Assembly: GCA_964441695.1 (NCBI GenBank)
Contig: CAYYKO010000002.1
Coordinates: 1-57,345, forward strand
Length of the DNA stretch: 57,345 nucleotides
DNA from: an uncultured Ruminococcus sp.
GTDB taxonomy: Bacteria; Bacillota; Clostridia; Oscillospirales; CAG-272
Reading direction: 5' to 3'
Shown one piece after another: positions 5,442 through 37,624 of the stretch (its first letter is position 1; every line of letters starts with the position of its first letter). The translations under genes were made by a program, and so were the position numbers. Below the pieces are notes generated by a model. The model was not told the origin of the DNA and did no database searches. It saw nothing but the letters and a program-made list of their open reading frames with translations.

Positions 5442-5465
5442 GAAATCACATTACGGAGAATATTA

Positions 5466-6698: not shown

Positions 6699-6782
6699 AT
6701 TATCGACCGTCTCCGCGAGGCGGGCTGCGAGGAGGGCGACACGGTCAACTTCTGCGGCATGGAATTTGATTTCATAGACTGA
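6699..6782 (+). other. obg: In-frame continuation of obg after the TGA: 27 codons encoding the conserved Obg C-terminal tail
   Basis: The same frame reads IIDRLREAGCEEGDTVNFCGMEFDFID then TGA (6780-6782). That stop overlaps the ATG (6782) of the next gene. Confidence 0.7.
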
Positions 6783-8841: not shown

Positions 8842-8847
8842 GCTCAC

Positions 8848-8882
8848 AAAGGCTCCCCGACAGGTCGTCGGGGAGCCTTTTG
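8848..8882. terminator. Bidirectional terminator between convergent genes
   Basis: AAAGGCTCCCCGAC-AGGT-CGTCGGGGAGCCTTTT with A-run and T-run flanks. It abuts the stop of the minus-strand GH13 gene. Confidence 0.75.
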
Positions 8883-10778: not shown

Positions 10779-13183
10779 ATATTCTCAGCGTATTCTCTGA
10801 TGCTTCTGTCTGCGGCAAAGAAGCCTGCCTTTGCAATGTTCACGAGCGACTTCTTCGTCCATGCCTCGCGGTCTGCGTAGTCTGTCATCATGGTGTCGAA
10901 GGTATTGATATACGAATCGAAGTCGGCAAGGCACATGTACGGGTCGGACACGCCGTGAGAGTACAAAAGGTAGCTGACTATCGACTTGAAATCATTGCCC
11001 GCAAGCGACTTCTGCGAAAGTATGTCTATCGCCGCGCGGAGTCTGTCGCTCTGCATGTAATACTTCACGGATTCGTAGCCGCGCTTCCAGAGGTCGTCGA
11101 CCTGGCTGTCGGTCAGACCGAAGATATAAATATTGTCGTCGCCTACAGCATCGCGTATCTCGACATTCGCTCCGTCGAGCGTACCGAGCGTGAGCGCTCC
11201 GTTTATCATGAACTTCATGCAGCCCGTGCCGCTCGCCTCCTTGCCGGCAAGCGAGATCTGCTCGCTGATATCGGTCGCGGGCATGAGCAGCTCGGACTCG
11301 GTGACGTTATATTCCTCGACAAACGCTATGCGGATCACGTCGCGTGCCACGGGGTCACGCGCTATCTCCTCACCGAGGCTCCAGATAAGGCGAATTATAT
11401 TCTTCGCCATGTAATAGCCGCTTGCAGCCTTGCCGCCGAAGATAAACGTTGTCGGCGTGATGTCGGCATTCGGGTTATTCTTCAGCTCTGCGTAAAGCGA
11501 AAGCACCTTGAGAACGTTGAGCAGCTGCCTCTTGTATTCGTGAATACGCTTTACCTGCGTGTCGAATACGGAGGACGCGTCGAGTGCGACGCCTGTCTTG
11601 TTGAAGTAATGCTTCGAGAAGGCAAGCTTGTTTTCCGCCTTTATATCGCGCAGGCGCTCGAGGACCGCCGCGTCGTCGCGGTACTTGAGAAAGTCTTCAA
11701 GTCTCTCGGGATCCTTGCGATAGGAGTCGCCTATCGTCTCGTCAAGCAGGCTCGAGAGCCCGCGGTTCGAGTAGCAAAGCCAGCGCCTGTGCGCGATGCC
11801 GTTGGTTACATTCGTGAATTTCTGCGGGTACGCCTTATAGAAGTCGTGGAACACGGTCTTCTTCAGGATATCCGAATGAAGCGCCGAAACTCCGTTTACG
11901 GTATGCGAAGCAATAACGCTGAGATTTGCCATGCGTATCTGCGAGTACGCGACGACGGACATTCTCGAGATGCGATCCCAGTCGCCGGGGTACATATTCC
12001 AAAGATTGGTGCAAAGACGGCGGTTTATCTCCTCGATTATCATGTAGATTCTCGGCAGCTTCAGGCGGAACAGGTCGACATTCCACGTTTCAAGCGCCTC
12101 GGGAAGCACCGTGTGATTCGTGTAGGACACGACGCGTGTCACGGTTCGCCATGCCTCGTCCCACGAATAGGAATACACGTCGATGAGTATTCGCATAAGC
12201 TCCGGAACGACGAGCGCGGGGTGCGTGTCGTTGATGTGGATAGCTATCTTGTCCGAAAGGTTCTCAAGCGTGCCGTAGGAGGCAAGGTGGTCGCTTATGA
12301 TGCTCTGAAGCGAGGCGGAAACGAGGAAATACTGCTGAGACAGTCTGAGCAGCTTGCCCTCGTCGTGCGCATCCGACGGGTAGAGCACCTTCGAAATTAT
12401 CTCGGCATTCGAGGTCTCCTGCATCGCACGGACATACTCGCCCTGCGAGATAAGGTTCATGTTAAAGGACGTGGTGTCCACCGCCTTCCAGAGGCGGAGA
12501 TTGTTGACAGCGTCGCTGTCGTAGCCCGAGATCATCAGATCGTAGGGCAGCGCGCGTACCTCGCTGTAATTTTCATAGGTAATGTCGCACTTGTCGCCGT
12601 TCCAGTTCTCATGCACCGTGCCGCCGAAGCGAACGGTAAATGCCTTGTCGGTTCTCGGATTGAGCCAAACGCTGCCTCTGTCCATCCAGGAATCGGGGAG
12701 CTCGATCTGCTCTCCATCGACAAGCTTCTGCTTGAAGAAGCCGTACTCGTAGCATATCGAAAAGCCCGTTGCGGGATAGCCGAGCGTTGTGAGCGAATCC
12801 ATGAAGCACGCCGCAAGACGTCCGAGTCCGCCGTTGCCGAGTCCGAGATCGACATCCATCTCATATGCGTCGTCAAGGCTGTAGCCCATGTCCGAGAGCA
12901 CCTCGCGGTACTCATTTTCAAGTCCGAGGTTCATCACGGCGTTCTTCATTGTTTTTCCGACAAGGAATTCCATGCACATATAATATATCTTCTTGCCGCG
13001 CGTCTTCTTCTGGCGGCGCTTGAATTCAACTCTCTTTGCCGCGAGCGTGTCCTTGATGCTGAGGGCGGTCGCCTTATATATCTGCTCCGCGTCAGCCTCG
13101 TCGGAATGCACACCGAAATATCTTATCAGCTTGTCCTCTACCGACTGTCTTATCTGTGTTTTTGTCTGTTCTTCTTTGTTCAT
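10757..13183 (-). CDS. glgP: Glycogen/alpha-glucan phosphorylase
   Basis: 808 aa. ...GLGNGGLGRLAACFMDS..., ...HEYKRQLLN... and the PLP site ...GKEASGTGCMKFMINGA... are GT35 phosphorylase hallmarks. Confidence 0.93.
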   Translation of the reverse strand: MNKEEQTKTQIRQSVEDKLIRYFGVHSDEADAEQIYKATALSIKDTLAAKRVEFKRRQKKTRGKKIYYMCMEFLVGKTMKNAVMNLGLENEYREVLSDMGYSLDDAYEMDVDLGLGNGGLGRLAACFMDSLTTLGYPATGFSICYEYGFFKQKLVDGEQIELPDSWMDRGSVWLNPRTDKAFTVRFGGTVHENWNGDKCDITYENYSEVRALPYDLMISGYDSDAVNNLRLWKAVDTTSFNMNLISQGEYVRAMQETSNAEIISKVLYPSDAHDEGKLLRLSQQYFLVSASLQSIISDHLASYGTLENLSDKIAIHINDTHPALVVPELMRILIDVYSYSWDEAWRTVTRVVSYTNHTVLPEALETWNVDLFRLKLPRIYMIIEEINRRLCTNLWNMYPGDWDRISRMSVVAYSQIRMANLSVIASHTVNGVSALHSDILKKTVFHDFYKAYPQKFTNVTNGIAHRRWLCYSNRGLSSLLDETIGDSYRKDPERLEDFLKYRDDAAVLERLRDIKAENKLAFSKHYFNKTGVALDASSVFDTQVKRIHEYKRQLLNVLKVLSLYAELKNNPNADITPTTFIFGGKAASGYYMAKNIIRLIWSLGEEIARDPVARDVIRIAFVEEYNVTESELLMPATDISEQISLAGKEASGTGCMKFMINGALTLGTLDGANVEIRDAVGDDNIYIFGLTDSQVDDLWKRGYESVKYYMQSDRLRAAIDILSQKSLAGNDFKSIVSYLLYSHGVSDPYMCLADFDSYINTFDTMMTDYADREAWTKKSLVNIAKAGFFAADRSIREYAENIWNIKRV

Positions 13184-13248
13184 TTGTCTCTCCGTGCCGC
13201 CCTTTCGGCGAGCCTTGCTTTAATTTTTCCGCTGCAATAAAACGACTC

Positions 13249-13287
13249 CTGCCGACCCCTCCGAAAAGCCTCCGTTAAGGTCGGCAG
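13249..13287 (-). terminator. Intra-operon hairpin (weak terminator/attenuator) between glgA and glgP
   Basis: 9-bp stem CTGCCGACC / GGTCGGCAG with a 21-nt loop. On the minus strand it is followed by GAGTCGTTTTATT. Confidence 0.3.
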
Positions 13288-13302
13288 AAATTATTTTGTC
13301 AC

Positions 13303-14736
13303 TCAGAGCATTGAGCTATACAGCTTAACGTATTTCTCGGCGGATGCATTCCACGAGAAGTCCACCTTCATGACGCGCCGTCTGAGCGCAGCCCACTTCT
13401 GCTTCTTTCTGTATATCTCGAGGGCGTACTCGATGACCGCCATCATGTCGTGCGCGTTATAATTTGCAAACGAGAAGCCGTTGCCCTCGCCGGTAAATTC
13501 GTTGTACGGCTTTATCGTGTCGTAGAGTCCTCCCGTTTCGCGAACGATCGGGACCGTGCCGTAGCGCGAGGCTATCATCTGCGACAGTCCGCACGGCTCG
13601 CTCTTTGAAGGCATGAGGAATATATCGCCGCCGGCGTAGAATTTCTTCGACAGCGCCTTATTGTACTCGAGGCGCACCGCAACGCGACCGGGGTGGTCAG
13701 CCGCCGCGCGGAGGAAAAAGTCCTCATATTCGCACTCACCCGTGCCGAGCACTGCAAAGGAGGCGTCCGTGTGCTCGAGAATATCGTAAAGCACACATCT
13801 CACAAGCTCAAAGCCCTTATGCCCCGCAAGTCGCGATACCATAACGATGAGCGGCTTTTTCGGGTCGGGGTCGAGTCCGCATATCTCGCACAGCTCCGCC
13901 TTGTCGCGTGCCTTGCCCGCAATTTTGTCTGCGCTGTAGCACTCGGCGATATCGCAGTCGTGCTCGGGATTGTAGTACTCGATATCGATACCGTTCGTAA
14001 TTCCGGTAAGCTTGTCGCGGCTGTCACGCAGGATGTGGTAAAGCCCGTGCGAATAATATTCCGTAAGGATCTCCGAGGCGTAGCGCTCGCTGACCGTGCT
14101 TACCATATCGGAGCAGGTAACAGCGCCCTTGAGAAGGTTGATGCATCCGTCATATTCTACCACAGAGCGATCCGTTTCGTCAAGGTCGAATACGTCGCCG
14201 AGAATGCCGAGGTCGTACTTTCCCTGATATTCGATATTATGTATCGTAAACAGCGTCCGTACATTGCAATACGGCTCGATGCCCGCAAGGCGGCGCTTCA
14301 GGTAAATTACGGCAAGCGCACTCTGCCAGTCGTTGGCATGCATAACGTCCGGGACGAAGCCGACTGTCGCCATCAGGTGCAGCACAGCCTTTCCGAAGTA
14401 AGCGAAGCGTTCTCCGTCGTCGTACTGTCCGTAGAGCATACGGCGGGCAAAATAGTACTCGTTGTCAATGAAGTACACGGTCACGCCGTCGCGCTCCGTC
14501 TTCCATATTCCGCAGTAGAGTCTGCGCCAGGAAAGTCTCAGCTCTCCCTCGGAAACACGCTCGAAGCTGTCGTCCATCTTTTCCTTTATCGCGGGATACA
14601 TGGGGATAACGACGCGGACATCCGCCTCTCCTCCGGTTGCACGGCGCACCGCGGCGGGAAGTGAGCCGATAACATCGGCAAGACCGCCCGTCGATACGAA
14701 CGGCAATGCCTCCGAGGCTACGTATAATATTTTCAT
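13303..14736 (-). CDS. glgA: Glycogen synthase (ADP-glucose type)
   Basis: 477 aa. MKILYVASEALPFVSTGGLADV... (KxGGL-type motif) and a GT5 C-terminal domain. Confidence 0.93.
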   Translation of the reverse strand: MKILYVASEALPFVSTGGLADVIGSLPAAVRRATGGEADVRVVIPMYPAIKEKMDDSFERVSEGELRLSWRRLYCGIWKTERDGVTVYFIDNEYYFARRMLYGQYDDGERFAYFGKAVLHLMATVGFVPDVMHANDWQSALAVIYLKRRLAGIEPYCNVRTLFTIHNIEYQGKYDLGILGDVFDLDETDRSVVEYDGCINLLKGAVTCSDMVSTVSERYASEILTEYYSHGLYHILRDSRDKLTGITNGIDIEYYNPEHDCDIAECYSADKIAGKARDKAELCEICGLDPDPKKPLIVMVSRLAGHKGFELVRCVLYDILEHTDASFAVLGTGECEYEDFFLRAAADHPGRVAVRLEYNKALSKKFYAGGDIFLMPSKSEPCGLSQMIASRYGTVPIVRETGGLYDTIKPYNEFTGEGNGFSFANYNAHDMMAVIEYALEIYRKKQKWAALRRRVMKVDFSWNASAEKYVKLYSSML

Positions 14737-24073: not shown

Positions 24074-26203
24074 TCAGTGCTCGTTCTGCTCTATCACCAT
24101 TTGCTGCCACTCGCGGTCAAGCGTTACAAAGCGTGCATTCCATCCGGAGACGCGCACCGAAAGCGTTTCGTAGTTTTCGGGATGCGCCTGCGCCTCACGA
24201 AGCACTGCCGCGTCGACAACGTCGGGCTGCATGAAAAAGCCTCCGAGCGCGACAAAGCCGCGTATCAGTCCACACAGTGCCGAAAGTCCCGCCTCGCCCT
24301 CGACGTTCGACGGCAGGAGCTTTATGTCAAGCGCCGCGCCATTTGCGATCTTTTCAAGGTCGATCTTGCAGTACGAACGTATCTCGGCAGTCGCGCCGGT
24401 CTTATCCGTGTTCGGTGTCGGGGAGCAGTTTGCCGCCAGAATCTCTCCCGCGCGTCTGCCGTGCGGGCACGCGAGTCTCTGCGGAGACCACACAAGCTGA
24501 CGGCCGAACGTGCTGACTCCCGCGGGGAAACGGTAGCCGCTTCTGCCGTTATAGCTTTGGCAAATATCGGCGAAATCCGAGAGCATTCTCACAGCTATCG
24601 CATCAACCTCGTCGTTATCGTTTCCGTAATAATCGTAGTTTTTAAGCGCGTACTGTCTGAGAGCTTCCTCGCCCTCCCAGTTGTTGCGAAGTATCTTCAT
24701 AAGCTCGGGAAGAGTCAGCTTCTTCTCATCGTACACAAGCTTCTTTATCGCGTAAAGGCTGTTGACCGTGTCGGCAAGTCCGCCGATATGAGGTGAAATG
24801 AGATTATAAACAGGTCCGCCCTCGAGGTATGAGAGCCCCTTTTCGATGCATCCCTCCTCAAAGATCGAAACTACCGTGCACGGTGTACGCTCGATCCATT
24901 TCGAGTTTTCCGCGCAGTCGCCCATGACAGCAAAAAGCTCATCGTACACATGGTACTTTTCATCGACTCGCTCGCGCAGACCCTTTACGTATTCGCAGTA
25001 AAGCTCCTCAAAGGTATCAAAGCTTACATCGTCTTCATAGCCGCCGAGCGTTTTCTGCTGCAATACCTGAAGGGCGTCAAAGGGATGATAGGAGAAGAAG
25101 GTCTTTCCGGGGATCTGCACCTCCCAGCAGCCGTCGTTTGCGAATTTTCTCGCCTCGCGCTCGTCGTAGCCATCTCGCACAAGCGCGCGGATGATAGTTT
25201 CCTCATTATACACGGCAAGCGTGCCGCCGCCGTAGCGCATGACCTCTGCCACACGGCGGATGAGCTTTTCATCTGTCTTCGAATTCACGCGCACCGTCGT
25301 CGGGAAATCGCTGATGCCGAGCTCCTCGATTACGTCGAGGACAAGATATGTCACCTCGTTTGTGACCTCGTTGCCGTCTTCATCGATTCCCGCAAGCAGG
25401 AGATTTTGATAATGCTGTGCGTCACCGCTGCCTATATCCTCTCCGTTTATCCACTCACAGCCCTTGATAAAGAAATGCGCCAAAATTTCGCGTGCCTCGT
25501 CGAGCGTCAGCTTTCCGCTCTCAAGATCGCGCTTCAGATAATCTCCGAGCAGGTAGTCAATACGTCCGATGCCCGGCCAGTTTCCCGTGAGACGGATAAA
25601 CGCAAACGTAAACCAAATGCTCTGCACCGCCTCATAGAAGGATGTGGGCGTCTCAAACGGGACGCGCTTCAGGTTTTCGTAATTTGCGCGATATTCGGGA
25701 AGCTCGCGGAGTGCGTCGAGGTACCGTCCGTGCCAAACCTCAAAGGCATCGATACAGTTCAGACAGCTTTTTGCAAAAGCTTCCTTTTCGCTCCCGCGAT
25801 ATTTTTCGTATGCACGACGCGACTTTTCCCTTATATATCCGACACCGTGCTTTAATACCGTCTCGAAATCGGCAGTCAGGTGGCTCTGGCTCTCGCACAG
25901 GCGTGAGCCTTTATAATCTGCCGGCACGGAATGACTTATCGCCTTGCCGAGCGTCGCCGCTCCGCTCAGCTTCTCCCCCTCACAAATGCGAATCGGTGCT
26001 TCCTTTGCGATCTTCATTATCGCGATGTCGTACTTTTCTATCTTTGAGAGCGAGTCAAAATTCGGTATGTCGTCGAGGACAACGGCACTGCACTTCAAGG
26101 TGTCCTTGCCGTATTTTCTGCCGAGCGAGTCATGTGCAAAGCGTCGTGTCGCCTCTGACAGTCTCACCGGTCTTTTGCCTCCGTTTTGAGTGTAAAACTC
26201 CAT
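24074..26203 (-). CDS. Glycyl radical enzyme, PFL2/dehydratase-like family, unusually short (709 aa)
   Basis: C-terminal glycyl-radical motif ...TLSVRVSGWNARFVTL... (Gly codon 24143-24145). Thiyl loop ...FANDGCWEVQIPG... (GCxE pattern). Start placed at ATG 26203 (MEFYTQNGG...), 5 nt after GGAGGTG. Confidence 0.88.
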   Translation of the reverse strand: MEFYTQNGGKRPVRLSEATRRFAHDSLGRKYGKDTLKCSAVVLDDIPNFDSLSKIEKYDIAIMKIAKEAPIRICEGEKLSGAATLGKAISHSVPADYKGSRLCESQSHLTADFETVLKHGVGYIREKSRRAYEKYRGSEKEAFAKSCLNCIDAFEVWHGRYLDALRELPEYRANYENLKRVPFETPTSFYEAVQSIWFTFAFIRLTGNWPGIGRIDYLLGDYLKRDLESGKLTLDEAREILAHFFIKGCEWINGEDIGSGDAQHYQNLLLAGIDEDGNEVTNEVTYLVLDVIEELGISDFPTTVRVNSKTDEKLIRRVAEVMRYGGGTLAVYNEETIIRALVRDGYDEREARKFANDGCWEVQIPGKTFFSYHPFDALQVLQQKTLGGYEDDVSFDTFEELYCEYVKGLRERVDEKYHVYDELFAVMGDCAENSKWIERTPCTVVSIFEEGCIEKGLSYLEGGPVYNLISPHIGGLADTVNSLYAIKKLVYDEKKLTLPELMKILRNNWEGEEALRQYALKNYDYYGNDNDEVDAIAVRMLSDFADICQSYNGRSGYRFPAGVSTFGRQLVWSPQRLACPHGRRAGEILAANCSPTPNTDKTGATAEIRSYCKIDLEKIANGAALDIKLLPSNVEGEAGLSALCGLIRGFVALGGFFMQPDVVDAAVLREAQAHPENYETLSVRVSGWNARFVTLDREWQQMVIEQNEH

Positions 26204-26224
26204 GTTATCACCTCCGATGATATG

Positions 26225-26253
26225 ATTATACAGTACAAAGCTATTAAATTCAA
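26225..26253 (-). promoter_or_regulatory. sigma-A promoter for the glycyl radical enzyme gene
   Basis: Minus strand: TTGAAT (26253-26248), 17-nt spacer, TATAAT (26230-26225). Confidence 0.55.
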
Positions 26254-26282
26254 TTGACATTTCCGCACAATACATGTATAAT
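26254..26282 (+). promoter_or_regulatory. sigma-A promoter for the AraC regulator, back to back with the GRE promoter
   Basis: Consensus TTGACA (26254-26259), 17-nt spacer, TATAAT (26277-26282). Confidence 0.6.
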
Positions 26283-26300
26283 ACTATTGAGGTGAGTCAT

Positions 26301-27092
26301 TTGAAAATAAGCAGCGTAAATATACGCTATTTTAAGAAGGACGGCTTTTACTCCGTTCCGAACGAAGGCGTCACTCATGTGAAGGTACTGCCCTGCCTTT
26401 CCGTCGTTCAGTCGCTCGAGGGACATTACGACATCACGCTCGGCGGAGGGGATAAAATGCAAACGACGGACGGCGGATTTTTCATTGCTCCGGCAGGCGT
26501 GCAGCAAACAATAACGCACCACATCAACGAAAAAAGCGGCAGGATGAGCTGCCGCTGGATATTTATCGACGCGCGGATAAACCGCGAGCTTTCGCCCGAC
26601 TCGCTTTATACCTTTCCGACGGTGATAAACGGCGACGAGCGGCATGAGCTGAACTCGATTTTCGAGAGATTATTCGCGACCGACGACGCATTTGAAAATC
26701 ACGCGGACTGCTGTCGGCTTCTCGGATACCTGACAAAGCTCGGAAAAGAAGCGAAGGAGGGCTCTCACGGCGGGCTGAAAACGGCTCTCTCGTATATATC
26801 CGAGCACTACACCGAGCACATCACCGTAAAAATTCTCGCAGAGGCTTCGAATATGTCGGAATCAAATTTTTACGCGCTCTTCAGAAGGCACGTCGGCACG
26901 TCGCCGATAGCATATCTGAACAGCTACCGTCTTTCCGTTGCAGCCGATGCACTGACACAAAGCACGCAGAGCATCAAGGAGATAAGCTTCTCCGTCGGTA
27001 TCGACGACTCGATGTATTTCAGTCGGCTCTTTCGCAAAACCTACGGTGTGTCGCCGAGTGAGTACCGCGCACTGTACAAAAGCCGCACGTGA
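26301..27092 (+). CDS. AraC family transcriptional regulator
   Basis: Cupin-like N-terminus and a C-terminal double HTH: ...ILAEASNMSESNFYALFRRHVGTSPIAYLNSYRLSVAADAL...IKEISFSVGIDDSMYFSRLFRKTYGVSPSEYR.... Start moved to TTG 26301 (GAGGTG 6 nt upstream) because ATG 26274 lies within the promoter spacer. Confidence 0.85.
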   Translation: MKISSVNIRYFKKDGFYSVPNEGVTHVKVLPCLSVVQSLEGHYDITLGGGDKMQTTDGGFFIAPAGVQQTITHHINEKSGRMSCRWIFIDARINRELSPDSLYTFPTVINGDERHELNSIFERLFATDDAFENHADCCRLLGYLTKLGKEAKEGSHGGLKTALSYISEHYTEHITVKILAEASNMSESNFYALFRRHVGTSPIAYLNSYRLSVAADALTQSTQSIKEISFSVGIDDSMYFSRLFRKTYGVSPSEYRALYKSRT

Positions 27093-28680: not shown

Positions 28681-28710
28681 TATATATCAAGCAAAACTGC
28701 GACCTTACAA
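28681..28710 (-). promoter_or_regulatory. Candidate promoter for the lipoprotein gene
   Basis: Minus strand: TTGTAA (28710-28705), 18-nt spacer, TATATA (28686-28681). The -35 lies inside the right palindrome. Confidence 0.35.
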
Positions 28711-28733
28711 AAAAGTACACCTTTTCGTAAAGC
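28703..28733. repeat. Right copy of the paired palindromic element
   Basis: CCTTACAAAAAAGTACAC CTTTTCGTAAAGC, an imperfect palindrome centred on GTAC. 28703-28720 is the reverse complement of the left element (16/16 matches, then a 1-nt indel). Confidence 0.65.
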
Positions 28734-28761
28734 CGCCGTTTTTGCAGGCTACTTAAATATC

Positions 28762-28824: not shown

Positions 28825-31323
28825 TTACTTGTTGAGTCCAAGCCTCTCTGCGGCATCCTCGCGCATTTTGTACTTGAGAATTTTGCCCGCCGCGTTCATC
28901 GGGAACGACTTTACGAATTCAACGTATCTCGGCACCTTATGACGCGCCATGTGAGAGCGAATGTACTCCTTCATCTCGTCGGCGGTCATCTCCTCGCCCT
29001 CCTTCAGGATAATGCACGCCATGATCTCCTCGCCGTACTGCTTGTCGGGCACGCCGATGACCTGAACGTCCTTGACCTTGGGGCAGGTGTAGATGAATTC
29101 CTCGATCTCCTTCGGATAGATATTCTCTCCTCCGCGGATGATCATATCCTTGAGTCGACCCGTGATGCGGTAATTGCCGTCGGCGTCGCGTGCGGCAAGG
29201 TCTCCCGTGTGGAGCCAGCCCTCGCTGTCGATGGCAGCCGCCGTGGCGGAGGGCATCTTGTAGTAGCCCTTCATTATATTATATCCGCGTGCAACGAACT
29301 CGCCGTTTACTCCGTCGGGACAATCCTCTCCCGTCTCGGGGTCGACGATCTTGCACTCGACATTCGCGAACGCGCTTCCGACAGTCTCCGTTCTCACGTC
29401 AAGCGACTCGTAATAGCTGCTCATCGTGCAGCCGGGGCTCGCCTCCGTCTGACCGTATACCGAGACGATCTGCTTCATGTTCATCGTCTCCGTAGCCTTT
29501 TTCATCAGCTCCGCGGGGCAGTTCGCGCCCGCCATGATACCCGTGCGAATGTGCGAGAAATCTGTCTTTTCAAAGTCGGGATGCTGCATCATCGCAATAA
29601 ACATGGTCGGCACGCCGTTGAAGCACGTGATCCTCTCCTGATTTATGCAGGCGAGAGCCGGCTTCGGTGAGAAATACGGCAGCGGGCACATCGTAGCACC
29701 GTGCGTCATTGATGCTGTCATCGAGAGCACCATTCCGAAGCAGTGGAACATAGGCACCTGTATCATCATACGGTCGGCGGTCGAGAGATCCATGCGGTCT
29801 CCGATGTACTTACCGTTGTTTACGACATTGTAGTGGGTGAGCATGACTCCCTTGGGGAAGCCCGTCGTGCCTGAGGTGTACTGCATATTGCAGACGTCGT
29901 TGCGGTCAACGGCGGCAGCCATGCGGCGAAGCTCGGATACGGGGACGTCCTCGTAGCGCTCCTCAGCCTGCTTCCAGGTGAGGCAGCCCTTCTGCTTGAA
30001 GCCGACCGTGATAATATTGCGTAAGAACGGCAGGCGGCGGCAGTGGAGCGGATGACCCGCGCGTGCGGTAAGCGTCTCGGGGCAAAGCTCGGCAACTATC
30101 GCGCCGTAGTCTGTCTCCTTCGTGCCCTGAGTCATGATAAGCGTGTGCGTATCGGACTGGCGGAGCAGATACTCGAGCTCGTGTATCTTGTATGCGGTAT
30201 TGACGGTAACGAGCACCGCGCCGATCTTTACCGTTGCCCAGAACGAGATGTACCACTGCGGCACGTTTGACGCCCATACTGCAACGTGGTCTCCCGCCTT
30301 GACGCCGAGAGAGATGAGGCTTCGTGCGAAGCGGTCGACGTCGTCGCGGAACTCGCTGTAGGTACGTGTGTAATCGAGAGTCGTATATTTGAAGGCGTAC
30401 TGATCGGGGAAGTCCTCGACCATGCGGTCAAGCACCTCTGAGAAGGTAAGGTCGATAAGGTCGTCCTTCTTCCAGACAAAGCGACCGGTGTGCGTCTCGT
30501 TGTAGTAGAAGCTCTTTTCGTTCTGAGAGGGGTCGCCGAACTGTCTCATGTAATTCTGGAACTGCGTGAGCACGGTCTCCATGTCGTCAAGCTCCTCGCA
30601 CCATGCGGGATCCCAGACGAGCGATACAAAGCCGTCGTAATTGACGCTTCTGAGCGCGGACACGATCTCGCGCACGGGCAGCTCGCCTTCGCCGGCGAGG
30701 CGATATTCGGCAACGCCGCCGGTCGCGTCGATATCGCTGAAGTGCACGAGCCTGACGTATGCGCCGAGGTTCTTTATTATGACCTCGGGATCCTTCTCGG
30801 CGAAATATGCCTCGGAAACATTCCAAAGTGCGCCGACGCTGTCGCTTGCGAAGCGGTCAAGCGTCTCGCAAAGGCGTGCGCTGTCGCGATAAACACCGGA
30901 GGTTTCGAGCAGGAGCGTAACACCAAGCTCCTCGGCGCGCGGGAGCACCCTCTCGATAAATGCCTCAACGCGCTCGACTCCGTCCTCGTCGTCACCGCAG
31001 CAGCTTCTGAAGCGGATGTACGGAATATGCAGAAAGCGTGCTATCTCGAAGCATCTTTCAGTCTCCTCCACAGCCGTATCGGTCGTGCCCTCGGCTGAAA
31101 TATCGCAGATCGTATCGATGCAGGGAACGGTAAGCTCGCGGTCGTAGAGCATACGCTGCGTCGACGCCGCGGAATAATCGTGAAAGGCTCCGTCACGGTC
31201 GGTAAAGAGAGCGCCGTTTACGTTATGCAGCTCGATTCCGTCGAACTTGAGGTCGTGAGCGATATTGCAAAAATCCTCAAAGCTGCAATCATGCCAGCCC
31301 TTTGTTGAAAAAGAAAGCTTCAT
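28825..31323 (-). CDS. Fusion protein: N-terminal xylose-isomerase-like TIM barrel (sugar-phosphate isomerase/epimerase family) plus C-terminal AMP-forming acyl-CoA synthetase/ligase
   Basis: 832 aa. Residues 1 to about 270 (MKLSFSTKGWHDCSFEDFCNIAHDLKFDGIELHNV...LLLETSG...VRLVHFSD...) form an AP-endonuclease-2/XylA-like TIM barrel. From about residue 285 come the ANL-superfamily motifs: ...QYTSGTTGFPKGVMLTHYN..., ...YGQTE..., ...GWLHTGDLA...RLKDMIIRGGENIYP..., ...AAGKILK.... Confidence 0.85.
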   Translation of the reverse strand: MKLSFSTKGWHDCSFEDFCNIAHDLKFDGIELHNVNGALFTDRDGAFHDYSAASTQRMLYDRELTVPCIDTICDISAEGTTDTAVEETERCFEIARFLHIPYIRFRSCCGDDEDGVERVEAFIERVLPRAEELGVTLLLETSGVYRDSARLCETLDRFASDSVGALWNVSEAYFAEKDPEVIIKNLGAYVRLVHFSDIDATGGVAEYRLAGEGELPVREIVSALRSVNYDGFVSLVWDPAWCEELDDMETVLTQFQNYMRQFGDPSQNEKSFYYNETHTGRFVWKKDDLIDLTFSEVLDRMVEDFPDQYAFKYTTLDYTRTYSEFRDDVDRFARSLISLGVKAGDHVAVWASNVPQWYISFWATVKIGAVLVTVNTAYKIHELEYLLRQSDTHTLIMTQGTKETDYGAIVAELCPETLTARAGHPLHCRRLPFLRNIITVGFKQKGCLTWKQAEERYEDVPVSELRRMAAAVDRNDVCNMQYTSGTTGFPKGVMLTHYNVVNNGKYIGDRMDLSTADRMMIQVPMFHCFGMVLSMTASMTHGATMCPLPYFSPKPALACINQERITCFNGVPTMFIAMMQHPDFEKTDFSHIRTGIMAGANCPAELMKKATETMNMKQIVSVYGQTEASPGCTMSSYYESLDVRTETVGSAFANVECKIVDPETGEDCPDGVNGEFVARGYNIMKGYYKMPSATAAAIDSEGWLHTGDLAARDADGNYRITGRLKDMIIRGGENIYPKEIEEFIYTCPKVKDVQVIGVPDKQYGEEIMACIILKEGEEMTADEMKEYIRSHMARHKVPRYVEFVKSFPMNAAGKILKYKMREDAAERLGLNK

Positions 31324-31341: not shown

Positions 31342-32727
31342 TTACGCGTTGTGCTCCTCGTAAACTATCTTGTTTACGGCGTTAATGTATGCTCTGATGC
31401 TTGCGCCGACGATGTCCGTGGACACGCCGTTTCCGGAATACAGTCTGCCCTCGAAGCGAAGCTTTACGACTGCGTTTCCGATAGCCTCCTGACCCTCCGT
31501 TACGGAGCGGATCATAAAGTCGTCAAGCTCGTAGCTGCTTCCTGTTACCTGACCTATCGCGCGGAAGGCGGCGTCGATCGGACCGTCACCGAGAGAGACG
31601 CCGACAAGCGTGCGTCCGTCGCGCTCGAGCGTGATCTGCGCGCTTGAATTGATAATATTGCCGTTGTTTACAACGTAGCTGACAAGCTTATAGGAATCGG
31701 GCACCTGGAGCGCTACCGAGGCGACTATCGCCTCAAGCTCCGCAGAGCCGACTCTCTTCTTCTCGCCGACGCGTCCGATCTCCTCATGAACGCGGGCGCA
31801 GTCCTCATCGGACAGATCGTAGCCGAGTCGTGCGACAGCAGCGGCAACACTTTCAACGGTGTCGGAGGCGTCAAGGCTGACTCCGTCGTTTTCGTCTGCC
31901 GACGGCGCGCCGACTGTCTTCTCGCTCTTTGCGCTTCCGGTAATGCGGCGAAGCTGCTCGGTTATTCTGTGAAGCTCTGTATAAGTAATGTCGGAGGAGA
32001 TGCCGAAGCTCTCTCCGCAGTTTTTGACAAGTGTCGCGAAGGTCTCGGTCTGCGCGCTCTCGCCGTCAACGGCGCACTTGACAAACGATACGCCGCGGCA
32101 AGCCGCCATCGTGAGGGAGGCTACGGCAAGACCGTTTTTGTCGGAGCAGGACGCACCGACGGGAACACCGGCACAGGAGGCAACGCTCTCTGTGAAGGCT
32201 GCAAATGCGTCGGGGAGCATTTCGGCGGCGCTGTCGCAAACGCTGACATAAGATGCTCCGGCGTCAACTGCCGTGCGGATAGCATCGTCAAGGAAGCTCC
32301 TTTCGGCTCTTGTCGCATCAACGGCGCAGAACTCAACCTCGGCGACGTGAGACACTGCAAGCTTTACCGACTTTTCGATCCACTCAAGCATCGCGGCGGG
32401 CTTCTTCATCATGAAGTACTCCATTCCGACAGACGAGGTGGGGAGTGCGATTTTAATTCTCGCGCGGGGCGCCGAGCTGAGTGCGGCAGCGGCATTTTCG
32501 ATGCTCTCGGCGGAGCTTCCCGCAGCGACGGAAAGTGTGCTGTTTTTTACAAAGGATGACGCTGTACGCACCATCAGTATATCACTTTTGGGGTTGGCGA
32601 TCTCGGGCAGCTCGATAATATCGCACCTCATGCGATCGAGCTGGCGGATGATCTCGAGCTTCTCCTTAAAGCTGAAGCTTCTGTCCTCACGGCAAAGCGT
32701 GGCATCGGCAATTTTGACCTTGTTCAT
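31342..32727 (-). CDS. 2-isopropylmalate-synthase-like protein with degenerate active site (HMGL-like barrel plus LeuA_dimer regulatory domain)
   Basis: 461 aa, collinear with LeuA. It has DATLCREDR where LeuA has DTTLRDGEQ, and ...GASCSDKNGLAVAS... where LeuA has ...HCHDDLGMAVAN... (both His replaced by Ser). The C-terminal ...GDGPIDAAFRAI...AIGNAVVKLRFEGRLYSGNGVSTDIVGASIRAYINAVNK... retains the LeuA allosteric domain. Confidence 0.8.
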   Translation of the reverse strand: MNKVKIADATLCREDRSFSFKEKLEIIRQLDRMRCDIIELPEIANPKSDILMVRTASSFVKNSTLSVAAGSSAESIENAAAALSSAPRARIKIALPTSSVGMEYFMMKKPAAMLEWIEKSVKLAVSHVAEVEFCAVDATRAERSFLDDAIRTAVDAGASYVSVCDSAAEMLPDAFAAFTESVASCAGVPVGASCSDKNGLAVASLTMAACRGVSFVKCAVDGESAQTETFATLVKNCGESFGISSDITYTELHRITEQLRRITGSAKSEKTVGAPSADENDGVSLDASDTVESVAAAVARLGYDLSDEDCARVHEEIGRVGEKKRVGSAELEAIVASVALQVPDSYKLVSYVVNNGNIINSSAQITLERDGRTLVGVSLGDGPIDAAFRAIGQVTGSSYELDDFMIRSVTEGQEAIGNAVVKLRFEGRLYSGNGVSTDIVGASIRAYINAVNKIVYEEHNA

Positions 32728-32774: not shown

Positions 32775-33055
32775 CGAAAAAGAAAAGCCCTGAAATCGGA
32801 TAATCCGACTTCAGGGACGAAATGCTTCGCGGTACCACCCTGTTTACCGTCAAGAAAAAACGGTCAACTCGTCAGAGCTCAGGCAAGCTCCCGGTCATGA
32901 TAACGGGACCGTCCGTAGCCGTTTACTGTAATTCGACGACTCTGCTCCGAAATGAGACTTCACATCCACCGCCAATATCGGCTCGCACCTGCCGCCGACT
33001 CTCTGAAATGTGGCAAAGCGGAGGAATAATTCCATCAACGCATTTGAATAAGTTG
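32775..33055 (-). promoter_or_regulatory. T-box riboswitch leader, probable Leu (CUC) specifier
   Basis: Minus-strand elements in order: UGCGUUGAUGG (GA/K-turn), AGAGAG bulge, GGUGCGA distal loop, GAAGU-CUC-A specifier loop (CUC = plus-strand 32954-32956) closing on UUUCGGAGCA, T-box sequence AACAGGGUGGUACCGCG (core at 32828-32840), and a terminator stem at 32788-32816 plus U-run. Confidence 0.8.
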
Positions 33056-33060: not shown

Positions 33061-33089
33061 ATTATACCACCGCTCGCCCGACTTGTCAA
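33061..33089 (-). promoter_or_regulatory. Consensus sigma-A promoter for the T-box operon
   Basis: Minus strand: TTGACA (33089-33084), 17-nt spacer, TATAAT (33066-33061), with TGg extended -10. Confidence 0.65.
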
Positions 33090-33170: not shown

Positions 33171-34373
33171 TTACTTTCTGTCTATTCTGAACAGACGCAT
33201 CTGTCCGGCATAGAGCGCAATGTTTTCCTTACCCGAGTCGGAGCTGTCGCCGATACCCGCTCCGTTGCAGATAACCTCGCGAACGGCACACCTTGCAGGG
33301 TCGAACTCGATGTTCACCGAGCCGTGGATCTTCGTCATCGCGTTAACGGCGCAGAGGTATTCCTGACCGTTGTCATCCTCGAAGAAGCTGACGAGAATGT
33401 CGTCCCAGACCGCGCTGACCTTGACAAGGTCGTGGTCTCCCTCCCGGAAGCGCGGAAAAACATCGGTGATGTTGTCGCCGAGCATATACGTGCTCTTTCT
33501 GTGAAGCGTCGGCATTATCTCTCCGTAATGATCAGCAAAACGGCGCTGTGCGCGGAGCATATCGTAGTATGTATCGGTCTTGTTACCGTACTCGTCGATA
33601 GGCGAGCCGAAATATTCGTTACCCATCATGCGGTCGTAGAAGCGGAACCAGATATTACCGCGGCAGCCGCAGGCTGCGGGAACGGTTATCTGCCAGAGAA
33701 GCTCGTGGTAATTCGGCTTTCTGTATGCGTAATGTGCGCTCGAGAGTGTGTTCGCCCAAATATCGAGACCCGCCTTCTCGGCTGCGCCGACGACTACCTT
33801 AAGCGAATAAATATCGTCTCTGAGAGTCTTCTCGTTTATCATGCTTCCGTAAAGGTCGAGGCTTGCAAAGCTTGCGCCCTTCTCGCGGATATACTTGAAC
33901 CACTCCTCAAGCGTGCGACCGCCGAGAGCATCCTTTGAAAGCACGGGGGTGTCTCCGCAAAGGTTAACGTATGCCTTCAGCTCGGGAGCTACACGGTGGT
34001 GTATCTCAAAGCACTTGGCTGTCGCCTCAAGCGACTCCTTATCGCTCGGCTCGTCGCCGATGAAGAAGCCGTAAAGCGCGGGATGACCCTTAAGAGGCTC
34101 GTATACCGTGCGAAGATTCTGCTCAAGCTGCTCCTCGCTGATATGTCTGAGATCTCCGTAGGAAAGACCGGCGCAATTGACGATCATCTTCACACCGAGC
34201 TCCGCTGCGCGGTCAAGGAAGGGCTTTACCGTGCGAACGCCCTCCTCGCTGCACGGGATCGAGGGGGTCATCGGAACTGTCATTCCGCATTCCTTCCACA
34301 CCTCGACCTCGTCGGGAGTGAAATCCGACGTGGGGTTATATACCCACATTGAAAAGGGATATTTTTCTGCCAT
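33171..34373 (-). CDS. Hypothetical protein, possibly a glycoside-hydrolase-like TIM barrel (400 aa)
   Basis: Start placed at ATG 34373 (MAEKYPFSMW...) after GGAGAA. Alternating beta/alpha pattern with ...YGFFIGDEPS... and ...LDIWANT... loosely recalls GH42/GH35-type barrels. No firm family assignment. Confidence 0.65.
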   Translation of the reverse strand: MAEKYPFSMWVYNPTSDFTPDEVEVWKECGMTVPMTPSIPCSEEGVRTVKPFLDRAAELGVKMIVNCAGLSYGDLRHISEEQLEQNLRTVYEPLKGHPALYGFFIGDEPSDKESLEATAKCFEIHHRVAPELKAYVNLCGDTPVLSKDALGGRTLEEWFKYIREKGASFASLDLYGSMINEKTLRDDIYSLKVVVGAAEKAGLDIWANTLSSAHYAYRKPNYHELLWQITVPAACGCRGNIWFRFYDRMMGNEYFGSPIDEYGNKTDTYYDMLRAQRRFADHYGEIMPTLHRKSTYMLGDNITDVFPRFREGDHDLVKVSAVWDDILVSFFEDDNGQEYLCAVNAMTKIHGSVNIEFDPARCAVREVICNGAGIGDSSDSGKENIALYAGQMRLFRIDRK

Positions 34374-34437
34374 AATATTTCTCCGTTCTCCGCCGTTCGG
34401 CGGCAATTGATTACTAAGCTCAAGTGTCTAAGGCAGC

Positions 34438-35247
34438 TTACGCCTTTGCAAGCTCATCGCTGCGTCTGAGGCATGCCTTCATGCAGTCCTCGACCGTCTT
34501 GTCGAAATCGGAGGCATTGAGGGAGTCGAGCGCCGCCTCCGTCGTTCCCTTCTTCGAGGTAACTCTCTCGCGAAGGGTCGCAGGGGAAATTCCGTTTTGA
34601 TCGATGACCTGCGCCGTTCCGACGAGCGTCTGCACCGCAAACGCCTCTGCCGCGTCCTCGGGAATTCCGAGCGTGACCGCCGCGCGAGCCATAGACTCGA
34701 CCATGCGGCAAATATACGCCGGTCCGCTTCCGGAAAGCGCCGTATATGCCGATATCATGTCCTCCTCGACGCGTCTGATTATTCCGAGCGGGGCAAAAAC
34801 AGCCTCGGCAAGAGCCGCCTCAGCGTCACCCGCGGCGCGTCCGAGCGCGTACACGGTAGCCGAGCGTCCGACGGACAGAGGCATATTCGGCATAAAGCGA
34901 ACGACACGTGCGCCGCCGAGCTCGTCCTCGAGACGTGCGGTCGATATTCCCGCCATTATCGAAAAATAAAGCTTGTCGGAGGTAAGATACTCTCCGTACA
35001 TGCTAAGTGCCTCGGGAAGCACCTGCGGCTTGATTCCGAAGACAACGGTGTCGCACTCCGCAAGGCTCTCCGCCGTGCGGCAGGCAATTCCGTGGCTCTC
35101 CGCCGCGCTTTTCGCGACCTCCGGGAAGGCGTCGTTTATGCAGTATATATTCTCCGGCGCAATAAGTCCCGCACCGAGAATTCCGTCTATCATTGCGCCC
35201 GCCATGAAGCCGACTCCGATAAAGGCAAGCTTTCCTTCAATCTTCAT
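34438..35247 (-). CDS. proC: Pyrroline-5-carboxylate reductase
   Basis: 269 aa. NAD(P)-binding ...LAFIGVGFMAGAMI... and the C-terminal ...VTSKKGTTEAAL... ProC signature. Confidence 0.92.
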   Translation of the reverse strand: MKIEGKLAFIGVGFMAGAMIDGILGAGLIAPENIYCINDAFPEVAKSAAESHGIACRTAESLAECDTVVFGIKPQVLPEALSMYGEYLTSDKLYFSIMAGISTARLEDELGGARVVRFMPNMPLSVGRSATVYALGRAAGDAEAALAEAVFAPLGIIRRVEEDMISAYTALSGSGPAYICRMVESMARAAVTLGIPEDAAEAFAVQTLVGTAQVIDQNGISPATLRERVTSKKGTTEAALDSLNASDFDKTVEDCMKACLRRSDELAKA

Positions 35248-35257
35248 TTCCCGTGCC

Positions 35258-36505
35258 TCACTTTCTTATCTGTCCCGTGCCCTCGACGATGAACTTGTAC
35301 GAGGTTATCTCACGAAGCCCGAGCGGACCGCGCGCGTGCATTTTCTGTGTTGAAATACCGATCTCCGCGCCGAAGCCGTATTCGAAGCCGTCGGTAAAGC
35401 GTGTCGAGGCATTGACATTCACAGCCGCCGCGTCGACCTCGCGAATAAACCTGTCAGCCGCCGCGCGGTCGTTTGTGATTATCGCCTCGGTATGTCCCGT
35501 GCCGTAGCGTCTGATATGCGCAATGGCATCGTCTATGCTGTCGACGAGCTTCACCGCCATATCGAGCGAAAGAAATTCACTCGCAAGCTCACTCTCTGTG
35601 ACCGGAACGGCATAGGGGACAAGGGCACAAAGCCTCGGGCAGCCGTGTACGGTAACGCCTGCGGCGCGAAGTGAGTCGCAAAGCCTTACCGCAAGCTCGG
35701 GGCGGGACGCGTGAACGAGCAGAGTCTCAGCGGCGTTGCAGACAGCGGGGCGCTGAGTCTTTGCGTTGATGAGAATATTCTCAGCCATCTCGGCATCCGC
35801 GTCGCGGTCAACGTAAATGTGGCAGTTTCCGACGCCCGTCTCGAGCACGGGCACGCGGCAATTCTCAACGACGCGTCTGATGAGTCCCGCGCCTCCGCGA
35901 GGTATCATAAGGTCAATGTAGCCGCGAAGCGACATCATTTCGTCGACCACGTCGTGCGAGCGTCCATCGACCAGCGACACCGCGTCGCACGGAAGGCTGC
36001 TCTCGGCTAGCGCGTCGCGCATTATTTCGGTAAGCTTTTTGTTCGATTCAAGGGCGCTCGAGCTTCCGCGAAGCATGACGGCACTTCCCGCCTTCAGCGA
36101 AAGCGAGGCGGCATCCACCGTAACGTTCGGGCGCGCCTCGTATATCATTCCGATAACGCCGAGCGGCACGCGAACACGCTTTATCACAAGTCCGTTCGGT
36201 CTTGTCGTCTCCTCGATGACCTCACCGACGGGGTCGGGGAGAGCGACGACCTGACGAACACCGAGCGCAATGTCGGCAATTCTCTTTTCGTTAAGCGTCA
36301 GTCTGTCAATGAGTGCCGCAGAGGTGCCGCTCGCGACAGCTGCGTCAACGTCTCTGCCGTTTGCCTCAAGTATCTCGTCAACACGCGACTCGAGCGCGTC
36401 GGCAATAAGCATGAGTGCGCGATTTTTCTCGTCTGTCGACGCACACGCAAGTGCGCCGGCTGCCGTCTTCGCGCTCTGCGCCTGCTTTACAAGTATCTCG
36501 TTCAT
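35258..36505 (-). CDS. proA: Glutamate-5-semialdehyde dehydrogenase
   Basis: 415 aa. ...YEARPNVTVDA..., catalytic ...VCNAAETLLVH..., and ...HTEAIIT...NASTRFTDG.... Confidence 0.93.
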   Translation of the reverse strand: MNEILVKQAQSAKTAAGALACASTDEKNRALMLIADALESRVDEILEANGRDVDAAVASGTSAALIDRLTLNEKRIADIALGVRQVVALPDPVGEVIEETTRPNGLVIKRVRVPLGVIGMIYEARPNVTVDAASLSLKAGSAVMLRGSSSALESNKKLTEIMRDALAESSLPCDAVSLVDGRSHDVVDEMMSLRGYIDLMIPRGGAGLIRRVVENCRVPVLETGVGNCHIYVDRDADAEMAENILINAKTQRPAVCNAAETLLVHASRPELAVRLCDSLRAAGVTVHGCPRLCALVPYAVPVTESELASEFLSLDMAVKLVDSIDDAIAHIRRYGTGHTEAIITNDRAAADRFIREVDAAAVNVNASTRFTDGFEYGFGAEIGISTQKMHARGPLGLREITSYKFIVEGTGQIRK

Positions 36506-36538
36506 ATTAAAAAGCTTCCTTTCGCTCGTATATCGTCC

Positions 36539-37624
36539 TTACAGCGTCGTAAGAACAAGGTCGTCCTTTCTTATAACGACACAGCTCTTACTGTCGCCCG
36601 TGTTTACCATGTCGCATATCTCGTTTTTCGAGAATGACGCAATTCCCCGTCCGAGGCACACGTGATCTCCTGCCGTCAGTATACGAACGACATCTCCGCC
36701 TGCGAAGTCGCCCTCCGCCGCGGTAACTCCCGCGCAAAGCAGGCTTTTTTCGTGATGTGCCACAGCCTCGGCAGCTCCTCGGTCAACGTAAATATTTCCC
36801 TTCGACGGCGCATAGAACGCCATCCACTGGAGGCGTGTTCTGAGGCTTCCGTCCGCCTTAAAGAGCGTGCCCTTGGCGCTTCCCGCGACCGCGTTGATTA
36901 TAACATTTTCATCCTTTGACGAGCAGATGAATACGGGAACTCCGGCGCGTGTCGCAAGGGACGCTCCGCGAAGCTTCGTTATCATGCCGCCGGTGCCGTT
37001 TTTCGTTCCCGCACCTCCCGCGTAGCGCTCGATCTCCGGGGTGATCCGCTCGACTGTCGGAATATGGCGAGCCGTGGGGTCGCTTGCGGGGTTCGCGGTA
37101 TAAAGCCCGTCGGTATCCGTGAGCAGTATGAGCATATCCGCATGAAGCATTGCCGCGACCTGCGAGGAGAGCGTGTCGTTGTCTCCGAGCCTCAGCTCCT
37201 CGACGGCTATGGTGTCGTTCTCGTTGATTATCGGCACAGCCCCGCGGCTGAGAAGTATCTCGAGCGCCGCAAAGGCGTTTTTGTATCTCCGCTTGTCCGT
37301 GAAGTCTCCTCGTGTGAGAAGTATCTGAGCGCAAACGTATCCGCGCTCCGAGAAGAATCTCTCATACTCCTCCATGAGCAGTCCCTGACCGACGGCTGCC
37401 GACGCCTGCTTTGCGGCAACGGAGGTCGGACGTGTCGTGTAGCCGAGTGCGCGGAAGCCCGCGGCAATCGAGCCCGAGGTAACTATAACGCAGTCGTGAC
37501 CTGCATCACGGACGTCTGCGACCTGGCGCACGATAGTCTGTATCTTTTCACGCGAAATATCGCCGTTTTTCCCGGTAAGCGAGCTGCTTCCGATCTTGAT
37601 TATGTAAAGCTTCTTATTATTCAT
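36539..37624 (-). CDS. proB: Glutamate 5-kinase (with PUA domain)
   Basis: 361 aa. ...IIKIGSSSLT..., ...VIVTSGSIAAG..., ...IINENDT...GDNDTLS..., and a PUA-like C-terminus. Confidence 0.93.
   Translation of the reverse strand: MNNKKLYIIKIGSSSLTGKNGDISREKIQTIVRQVADVRDAGHDCVIVTSGSIAAGFRALGYTTRPTSVAAKQASAAVGQGLLMEEYERFFSERGYVCAQILLTRGDFTDKRRYKNAFAALEILLSRGAVPIINENDTIAVEELRLGDNDTLSSQVAAMLHADMLILLTDTDGLYTANPASDPTARHIPTVERITPEIERYAGGAGTKNGTGGMITKLRGASLATRAGVPVFICSSKDENVIINAVAGSAKGTLFKADGSLRTRLQWMAFYAPSKGNIYVDRGAAEAVAHHEKSLLCAGVTAAEGDFAGGDVVRILTAGDHVCLGRGIASFSKNEICDMVNTGDSKSCVVIRKDDLVLTTL

Follow-up and report, generated by a model that had tools for sequence, protein, structure and literature searches.

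A LeuA homologue without catalytic residues, encoded with an acyl-CoA ligase behind a leucine T-box in Oscillospirales, is a candidate leucine-sensing subunit

The window analyzed here, a 57,345-nucleotide stretch of DNA from an uncultured Ruminococcus sp. of the order Oscillospirales (contig CAYYKO010000002.1, positions 1 to 57,345), encodes at positions 31342 to 32727 of the minus strand a 461-residue LeuA-like protein (P0001), which we designate pL. Residue-by-residue comparison showed that pL cannot be a 2-isopropylmalate synthase (IPMS), although, as far as its sequence can tell, it retains the leucine-binding domain of that enzyme essentially unchanged. The protein is produced under leucine limitation together with an acyl-CoA ligase, and phylogenetic and substitution analyses showed it to be a selected, ancient, single-origin derivative of short-form LeuA. 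By analogy with HisZ, pL would be the leucine-sensing regulatory subunit of a ligase committing isovalerate to leucine synthesis, a reading that we prefer and hold with about balanced confidence. The original prediction had described a catalytically dead LeuA homologue. That observation was confirmed, and the occurrence of the same losses in all 106 representatives of the family (clusters at 50% identity) indicates that it is not a chance feature. The accompanying interpretation was supported in every part accessible to computation, the regulatory or scaffolding role that it suggested being a putative one. The strand of the gene required correction to minus.

Alignment to the N. meningitidis IPMS 3RMJ and the Listeria IPMS 3EWB, the references for residue mapping in pL, bore out all four motif substitutions that had been quoted. 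The substrate and metal motif DTTLRDGEQS reads DATLCREDRS in pL, with Cys12 in place of the substrate Arg and Arg13 in place of the metal Asp. The HxH metal motif HCHNDLG reads SCSDKNG, both His residues being replaced by Ser, DTVG reads DSAA, and GxGERAGNA has become DG..ESAQTE, with a deletion. The catalytic Glu of the (E)DAxR strand (E218 in M. tuberculosis LeuA) is replaced by Val136. The subdomain-I motif HESGIHQ, which supplies the catalytic His (H379) in M. tuberculosis LeuA, is absent from pL, deleted or replaced by a low-confidence linker (residues 265 to 280). Substitutions of R80 and E218 abolish the activity of M. tuberculosis LeuA (PMC10464499). The proposed check on the Arg, Asp, and His-x-His ligands gave the same answer for pL and across the family, in which the catalytic residues are gone. 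In all 106 representatives both HxH positions lack His, and the HESGIH motif is deleted from the family; the metal Asp persists in 8 representatives and the catalytic Glu in 25. The Arg position is filled by R, K, C, A, or Q and the two former His positions by E/Q/S/C/R and S/A/N/R, and this variability of the replacement residues disfavors a new conserved active site. Forty-nine positions invariant in short-form LeuA are lost in pL, 47 of them in the barrel or subdomain I. The barrel has only four pL-specific conserved positions, none of them part of an obvious catalytic set.

These data bear on the possibility that pL is still an enzyme, with a new active site and a different chemistry on an intermediate of the leucine pathway. 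An intact barrel fold under purifying selection and the conservation among close relatives of Cys12, Cys134, Cys164, and Cys194, located at the ends of barrel strands, would fit such an enzyme. We nevertheless consider it very unlikely, given that the former active-site positions vary across the 106 representatives, that Cys12 is present in only 18 of them, that the four pL-specific barrel positions offer no obvious catalytic set, and that most of subdomain I, the part of LeuA that closes its active site, is missing. The Cys residues were also considered as a new metal or Fe-S site, which was rejected on the same count for Cys12 and because Cys194 occupies the place of the middle HCH residue, which faces outward in real LeuA.

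The domain organization of pL was established from its open reading frame, Pfam and NCBIfam matches, and structure-based alignment. An HMGL-like (beta/alpha)8 barrel devoid of catalytic and metal residues (residues 1 to 265; positions 31933 to 32727, minus strand) is followed by a helical accessory subdomain II (residues 285 to 344; 31696 to 31875, minus strand) and by a LeuA_dimer regulatory domain (31363 to 31695, minus strand). The Pfam matches were HMGL-like (PF00682) at residues 15 to 223, with 88 bits, and LeuA_dimer (PF08502) at residues 327 to 454, with 104 bits and 128 of the 131 profile positions covered (3 to 130). All NCBIfam LeuA models matched pL, every one far under its cut-off: the best score was obtained with NF002086 (244 bits for a cut-off of 532), and TIGR00973 reached 216 bits for a cut-off of 599. 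In NCBI records, members of the family are labeled "hypothetical protein." The AlphaFold2 model of pL had a mean pLDDT of 82. Its helices 291 to 300, 307 to 321, and 328 to 338 align to LeuA subdomain II, helices 383 to 395 and 439 to 459 belong to the regulatory domain, and the sole disordered stretch (residues 265 to 280; pLDDT <50) stands in place of most of subdomain I. The model barrel superposed on the IPMS catalytic domains 3RMJ, 3EWB, and 3EEG with rmsd values of 1.8 to 1.9 Å over 271 to 278 columns and target TM-scores of 0.82 to 0.91. The whole chain aligned to the leucine-bound M. tuberculosis LeuA (3FIG), and the best Foldseek match was 6E1J (BjuMAM1). A sequence search of the PDB with the C-terminal 183 residues returned only a weak match, to the regulatory domain of the Leptospira citramalate synthase (3F6G; E = 0.34).

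The LeuA_dimer domain had been described as well conserved, and it is the best-conserved part of pL; the C-terminal sequence quoted in support was located at residues 419 to 453. Within the pL family, mean pairwise identity is 33% in the barrel and 58% in the regulatory domain, whereas the corresponding values among real short-form LeuAs are 55% and 46%. Conservation is thus inverted in pL relative to real LeuA. Between pL and real LeuA, the barrel is 28% and the regulatory domain 42% identical, the latter value placing the regulatory domain of pL nearly as close to those of the LeuAs as these are to each other (46%). Thirty-six positions of this domain are at least 85% conserved in pL, and 27 of them are common to real LeuA. 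The most invariant motifs of pL are GDGPIDAAF (G380-x-G382-P383-x-D385-A386) and G.G.STDI (G432-x-G434-x-S436-T437-D438). The Corynebacterium feedback-resistant LeuA alleles G532D and L535V presumably map to the equivalent of the first of these, the GNGPL loop. In the model, the two motifs are located at the N-termini of helices 383 to 395 and 439 to 459. In M. tuberculosis LeuA, the carboxylate of leucine is held between two helix N-termini at the dimer interface of the regulatory domains (PMC11057210). Retention of the leucine site in pL, judged by sequence conservation, is probable.

A word-indexed search recovered hundreds of proteins of about 460 residues with 58 to 87% identity to pL, all from metagenome-assembled genomes of Clostridia, Oscillospiraceae, and Ruminococcus. 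An exhaustive search of 50%-identity representatives extended the family to more than 100 full-length pL clusters, down to about 36% identity, below which real LeuAs of about 510 residues begin, matched in two stretches. Scanning of one genome per species identified 562 or more pL loci, in samples from the guts of ruminants, humans, rabbits, and other hosts. In a maximum-likelihood tree that also included short-form LeuA, long-form LeuA, CimA-like proteins, and a Re-citrate-synthase-like outgroup, pL formed a single clade (SH-aLRT 100), placed within or beside short-form LeuA. Early branches (P0202 and P0203) keep partial ancestral motifs, such as LRE.. and NGWG..GGNA, indicating that the motifs decayed stepwise. 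The nearest sister outside the family, the 497-residue LeuA-like P0270, has intact DTTLRDG, HCHN, and NGIGERSGN motifs and no HESGIH motif; it may be an intermediate form. The closest relative (G007) has a pL frame broken by an in-frame TAG, reflecting either a pseudogene or an assembly error, and another genome (G008) carries two pL-ligase pairs on separate contigs, with identities of 74% and 68%.

The ratio of nonsynonymous to synonymous substitution rates (dN/dS) was 0.046 for pL overall (barrel, 0.033; regulatory domain, 0.022). In the pair used, that with G011, dS was 0.3 to 0.9; more distant pairs were saturated (dS >1.6). The value for the barrel indicates that this domain is not drifting. 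The idea that pL is a functionless, decaying remnant of leuA, for which the interrupted frame of G007 could be cited, is already contradicted by the selection and conservation data, namely, a dN/dS of about 0.05, intact open reading frames of 455 to 475 codons in at least 562 species, and a conserved gene order and regulation. We give it practically no credence.

In the window, a promoter with a 12/12 consensus match (TTGACA-17-TATAAT with a TG extension; positions 33061 to 33089, minus strand) is located 14 nt upstream of a T-box leader (32810 to 33047, minus strand) that matched the full-length RF00230 model with 106.4 bits (cut-off, 93). The specifier is CUC (GAAG-U-CUC-A), a Leu codon, and CUC occupies the same alignment column in the T-boxes of relatives. 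The Leu T-box reported upstream of the gene is genuine and conserved. An intrinsic terminator, consisting of a 13-bp stem followed by CTTTTCTTTT (32788 to 32816, minus strand), overlaps the 3' end of the T-box match, which is expected for a terminator/antiterminator switch. Downstream of pL, an 832-residue protein is encoded at positions 28825 to 31323 of the minus strand. Pfam and NCBIfam identified it as a fusion of a xylose-isomerase-like TIM barrel (AP_endonuc_2, PF01261; residues 1 to 275) to an AMP-forming acyl-CoA ligase (PF00501 and PF13193; residues ~288 to 832), with NF009233 as the best NCBIfam match (673 bits). As originally noted, the stop codon of pL lies 18 nt before the ATG of this adenylating enzyme; the spacer contains a GGAGGAG ribosome-binding site, and the tight coupling is conserved in relatives. 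A terminator-like hairpin (17-bp stem and T-rich tail; 28699 to 28736, minus strand) closes the transcription unit. Together, the promoter, the T-box, the two genes, and the closing hairpin define a two-gene operon predicted to be induced by leucine starvation.

The neighborhood of pL was surveyed in 80 loci from different species. The fusion gene was found immediately downstream of pL in all 63 complete loci, and its 5' part was found in all 16 partial loci. Spacing between the two genes ranged from -4 to +25 nt, with a median of 2 nt (79 loci), which suggests translationally coupled subunits. Of 69 loci, 63 had a T-box at most 420 nt before pL, with a CUC specifier in 61 and CUG in 2, both coding for Leu. 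An Amidohydro_2 gene followed the pair in 51 of 61 loci. Upstream of pL, a VOR-type 2-oxoacid:ferredoxin oxidoreductase was encoded in 31 of 47 loci and a branched-chain aminotransferase in 32 of 47. The cluster found directly upstream in about two-thirds of the loci comprises HTH-cupin-ligase, CbiA-like, and ferredoxin genes, the genes for the alpha, beta, and gamma subunits of the oxidoreductase, and the aminotransferase gene. In many relatives the pL-ligase pair ends a cluster that also holds further acyl-CoA ligases. In the genome of the window, the same oxidoreductase/aminotransferase cluster is present on contigs C73, C103, and C102, not adjacent to pL. Where pL lacks a T-box of its own, it stands at the end of the oxidoreductase operon, which in both loci examined opens with a GUA (Val) T-box (L025, 18711 to 18952, minus strand; L026, 1692 to 1938, plus strand). 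Since these operons start with a GUA specifier, one cluster can contain separate Val and Leu T-boxes.

This neighborhood also allows for pL to sense leucine, or another branched-chain amino or keto acid, on behalf of a target other than the ligase (the oxidoreductase, the aminotransferase, the Amidohydro_2 protein, or a protein encoded outside the locus), the ligase being co-transcribed merely as a member of the leucine regulon. A retained sensor domain is what such a role would demand, and the Amidohydro_2 gene in 51 of 61 loci and the frequent proximity of the oxidoreductase and aminotransferase genes supply candidates. However, no partner other than the fusion ligase occurs in all 79 loci, and its spacing suggests translational coupling, whereas the oxidoreductase, the aminotransferase, and the Amidohydro_2 gene are missing nearby in about one-third, one-third, and one-sixth of the loci, respectively, and none is adjacent in the window. 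We therefore regard a target other than the ligase as unlikely.

The distribution of pL was compared to that of real LeuA. Among 61 relatives, 25 carry pL, and 22 of these have no short-form LeuA, long-form LeuA, or LeuC orthologue; completeness is 93% or higher for 12 of these 22 genomes. The order was also sampled evenly (401 genomes), yielding 102 genomes with pL and 123 with short-form LeuA. The two were not clearly found together in any of the 102 pL genomes, versus about 31 expected if they were independent, an expectation calculated without phylogenetic correction. Both states recur in nine or more families. The other HMGL-like matches in the LeuA-less pL genomes fall into two classes, which would correspond to a Re-citrate-synthase-like gene beside an aconitase-like gene and to a carboxyltransferase-like gene. 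HMGL-like genes of about 470 codons (~110 bits) adjoin a 650-codon aconitase-like gene in many relatives (for example, G040:C2:228710-229531 with C2:309267-310493 and G049:C10:82592-85695). This pair is probably a Re-citrate synthase, such as that of Clostridium kluyveri, and an aconitase rather than LeuA and LeuC.

The genome of the window is one of the three exceptions among the 25 pL carriers. The question of a bona fide leuA elsewhere in this genome was answered positively, with a long-form gene on contig C11. There, positions 4326 to 13694 of the minus strand contain a complete ilvA-like/leuA(long form)-leuC-leuD-leuB-ilvB-ilvN-ilvC operon, and the DMRDGNQ, HPHND, and GNGERTGN motifs of the long-form LeuA are all intact. 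This LeuA is 90% identical to one from a different family of the order (G058) and is missing from most genomes of the same genus, suggesting horizontal acquisition. The description of pL as a LeuA paralogue is misleading, since pL derives from the short form, which is missing from this genome, and 22 of the 25 carriers lack LeuA entirely.

Eleven relatives contain the TIM-ligase fusion and no pL. In 9 of these 11, a T-box with a CUC specifier directly precedes the ligase gene, and none of the other genes of the cluster is nearby; most of the 11 genomes carry real LeuA. The pL-less fusions form one clade on the ligase tree, indicating that the pL state changed once. Their T-box/ligase units indicate that the Leu T-box and the ligase form the core of the system, pL being an accessory component that accompanies loss of the classical pathway. 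The TIM domain of the fusion (positions 30499 to 31323 of the window, minus strand) was compared with those of loci L023, L024, and L121 to L141, its metal ligands (E140, D168, H170/171, H194, D197, and E236) being mapped through PDB alignments to 8Z1I, 3WQO, and 2ZDS. The canonical xylose-isomerase-like ligands are intact in 11 of 11 fusions from pL-less genomes. In the clade of fusions to which that of the window belongs, all 69 have Val or Ile in place of E236, Asn mostly replaces D168, and Ser replaces H170, while H33 and D238 are newly invariant. The deeper pL-associated fusions retain the E-D-H-E set in 4 of 12 cases. The tree shows at least three losses of the metal site, all of them in lineages with pL. 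The four intact sites among the deeper fusions led us to downgrade an association between pL and loss of the TIM metal site that had seemed strict (69/69 versus 0/11).

The existence of ligases without pL is also relevant to the proposal that the ligase requires pL as a structural or specificity subunit, one that does not sense leucine and keeps its regulatory domain for dimerization only. Such a subunit might act as a scaffold, a stabilizer, a substrate-selectivity factor, or an adaptor handing isovaleryl-CoA to the oxidoreductase. The invariant adjacency to the fusion gene at near-zero spacing, the purifying selection on a dead barrel, and the double role of PF08502 as the dimerization domain of LeuA are all compatible with this proposal. 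Dimerization alone leaves unexplained that the two motifs at the helix N-termini, the place of the leucine carboxylate in LeuA, are the most invariant of the protein and common to real LeuA, and that conservation is much higher in the regulatory domain than in the barrel. An obligatory subunit is difficult to reconcile with the pL-less ligases. We judge a purely structural role to be improbable.

A leucine-sensing regulatory subunit of the ligase, the reading that we favor, would operate as follows. The ligase would activate isovalerate to isovaleryl-CoA, which the oxidoreductase would reductively carboxylate to 2-ketoisocaproate and the aminotransferase would convert to leucine, as in the classical route of the rumen. 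The ligase would be the sole leucine-specific, committed step of this isovalerate route and a logical point for feedback, because the oxidoreductase and the aminotransferase would be shared with valine and isoleucine. pL, probably dimerized by way of its regulatory domains like LeuA, would associate in a complex with the ligase, bind free leucine in the retained pocket, and relay a feedback signal to the ligase. The T-box would thereby provide slow control by uncharged tRNA-Leu and pL fast control by free leucine. In favor of this scheme are the family-wide loss of catalytic residues, the retained regulatory domain, the purifying selection, the invariant coupling to the ligase gene, the Leu T-box, the neighboring oxidoreductase and aminotransferase genes, and the lack of LeuA in most carriers. 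Several points weigh against this scheme. Binding of leucine by pL and its contact with the ligase are both deduced, as is the substrate of the ligase, which is assigned from gene context. The ligand of pL could be a branched-chain amino acid other than leucine or a branched-chain keto acid. Because the dead barrel is under purifying selection, it may do more than relay a signal. T-box/ligase units function without pL in other genomes, pL not being required for ligase activity, and the excess of group-specific positions in the TIM domain of the ligase was weakened by deeper sampling.

A broader evolutionary proposal, which we advance tentatively and with somewhat more doubt than belief, is that LeuA was recycled whole, in lineages abandoning the isopropylmalate pathway, as the allosteric leucine-feedback module of a nonhomologous ligase committing isovalerate. 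pL would then be the orthologous successor of short-form LeuA and not an additional paralogue, which would explain the lack of co-occurrence of the two proteins. It would also represent a second, independent "HisZ-type" invention, after which the TIM catalytic site of the ligase would have become dispensable and decayed at least three times.

Other features of the window lie outside this operon. Upstream, positions 33171 to 37624 of the minus strand encode proB-proA-proC and then a 411-residue protein with a weak DUF4434 match, ending at a terminator before the pL promoter. On the other side, positions 24074 to 27092 contain a glycyl-radical enzyme gene (PFL-like plus Gly_radical; 733-residue open reading frame) divergent from an AraC-type regulator gene; no activase was found among its annotated neighbors. 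A tmRNA gene is located at positions 986 to 1363 of the plus strand (RF00023, 169 bits).

Labeling work of the 1960s reportedly showed that anaerobes of the rumen and gut can form leucine by reductive carboxylation of isovalerate. To our knowledge, the leucine-specific genes of this route and their regulation have not been defined to date, and our literature search turned up no publication describing a catalytically dead LeuA or LeuA pseudoenzyme, or an isovalerate ligase under a Leu T-box. The pL family marks the presumed leucine-specific step in hundreds of uncultured Oscillospirales. Because most carriers lack the classical leucine pathway, the isovalerate route may be their only source of leucine. 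Annotation pipelines that label pL "2-isopropylmalate synthase" will wrongly predict leucine prototrophy via the isopropylmalate route. If pL is indeed a leucine-feedback subunit, it would offer a clear example of an entire allosteric enzyme converted to a sensor for another enzyme. It would also extend the few amino-acid-sensing pseudoenzymes, HisZ among them, by one derived from LeuA and provide a natural stand-alone leucine-binding module for biosensor work.

Among known proteins, short-form LeuA (EC 2.3.3.13; TIGR00973/NF002086; 3RMJ, 3EWB; M. tuberculosis 1SR9 and leucine-bound 3FIG) shares with pL the order barrel-subdomain II-LeuA_dimer, and leuA of many Firmicutes is, like pL, under Leu T-box control. 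However, pL is about 50 residues shorter, falls under every curated LeuA cut-off, and is linked not to leuBCD but always to an acyl-CoA ligase. Methylthioalkylmalate synthase and other IPMS-derived enzymes (BjuMAM1, 6E1J) are likewise descendants of LeuA that were given a new role; they kept catalysis and lost the regulatory domain, the opposite of pL. The architecture of pL is also that of CimA, a citramalate synthase whose LeuA_dimer domain binds isoleucine (Leptospira regulatory domain, 3F6G/3F6H). CimA illustrates that PF08502 can be tuned to another branched-chain amino acid and is workable as a stand-alone sensor module (PMC13381585). Unlike pL, CimA is catalytically active, and the CimA-like proteins of related genomes form a separate clade, the regulatory domain of pL being 22% identical to theirs versus 42% to that of LeuA.

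The functional model proposed for pL is HisZ, a catalytically dead paralogue of histidyl-tRNA synthetase (HisRS) that serves as the regulatory subunit of the short form of ATP phosphoribosyltransferase, HisG. HisZ makes HisG histidine-sensitive. Both HisZ and pL are pseudoenzymes derived from an enzyme that binds the end-product amino acid of the pathway, and in both the amino-acid site is kept, catalysis is lost, and the gene stands beside that of the committed enzyme, features that for pL are deduced from its genes. The two differ in that their folds and ancestry are unrelated, that the HisZ-HisG complex and its inhibition by histidine are experimentally proven whereas their counterparts in pL are predicted, and that the partner of pL is an ANL-superfamily ligase in a salvage-type route. 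The small subunits IlvN and IlvH of acetohydroxyacid synthase are small ACT-fold proteins, not dead copies of an enzyme, with a canonical partner and pathway. As proposed for pL, they are separate polypeptides that bind a branched-chain amino acid and exert feedback on an adjacently encoded partner.

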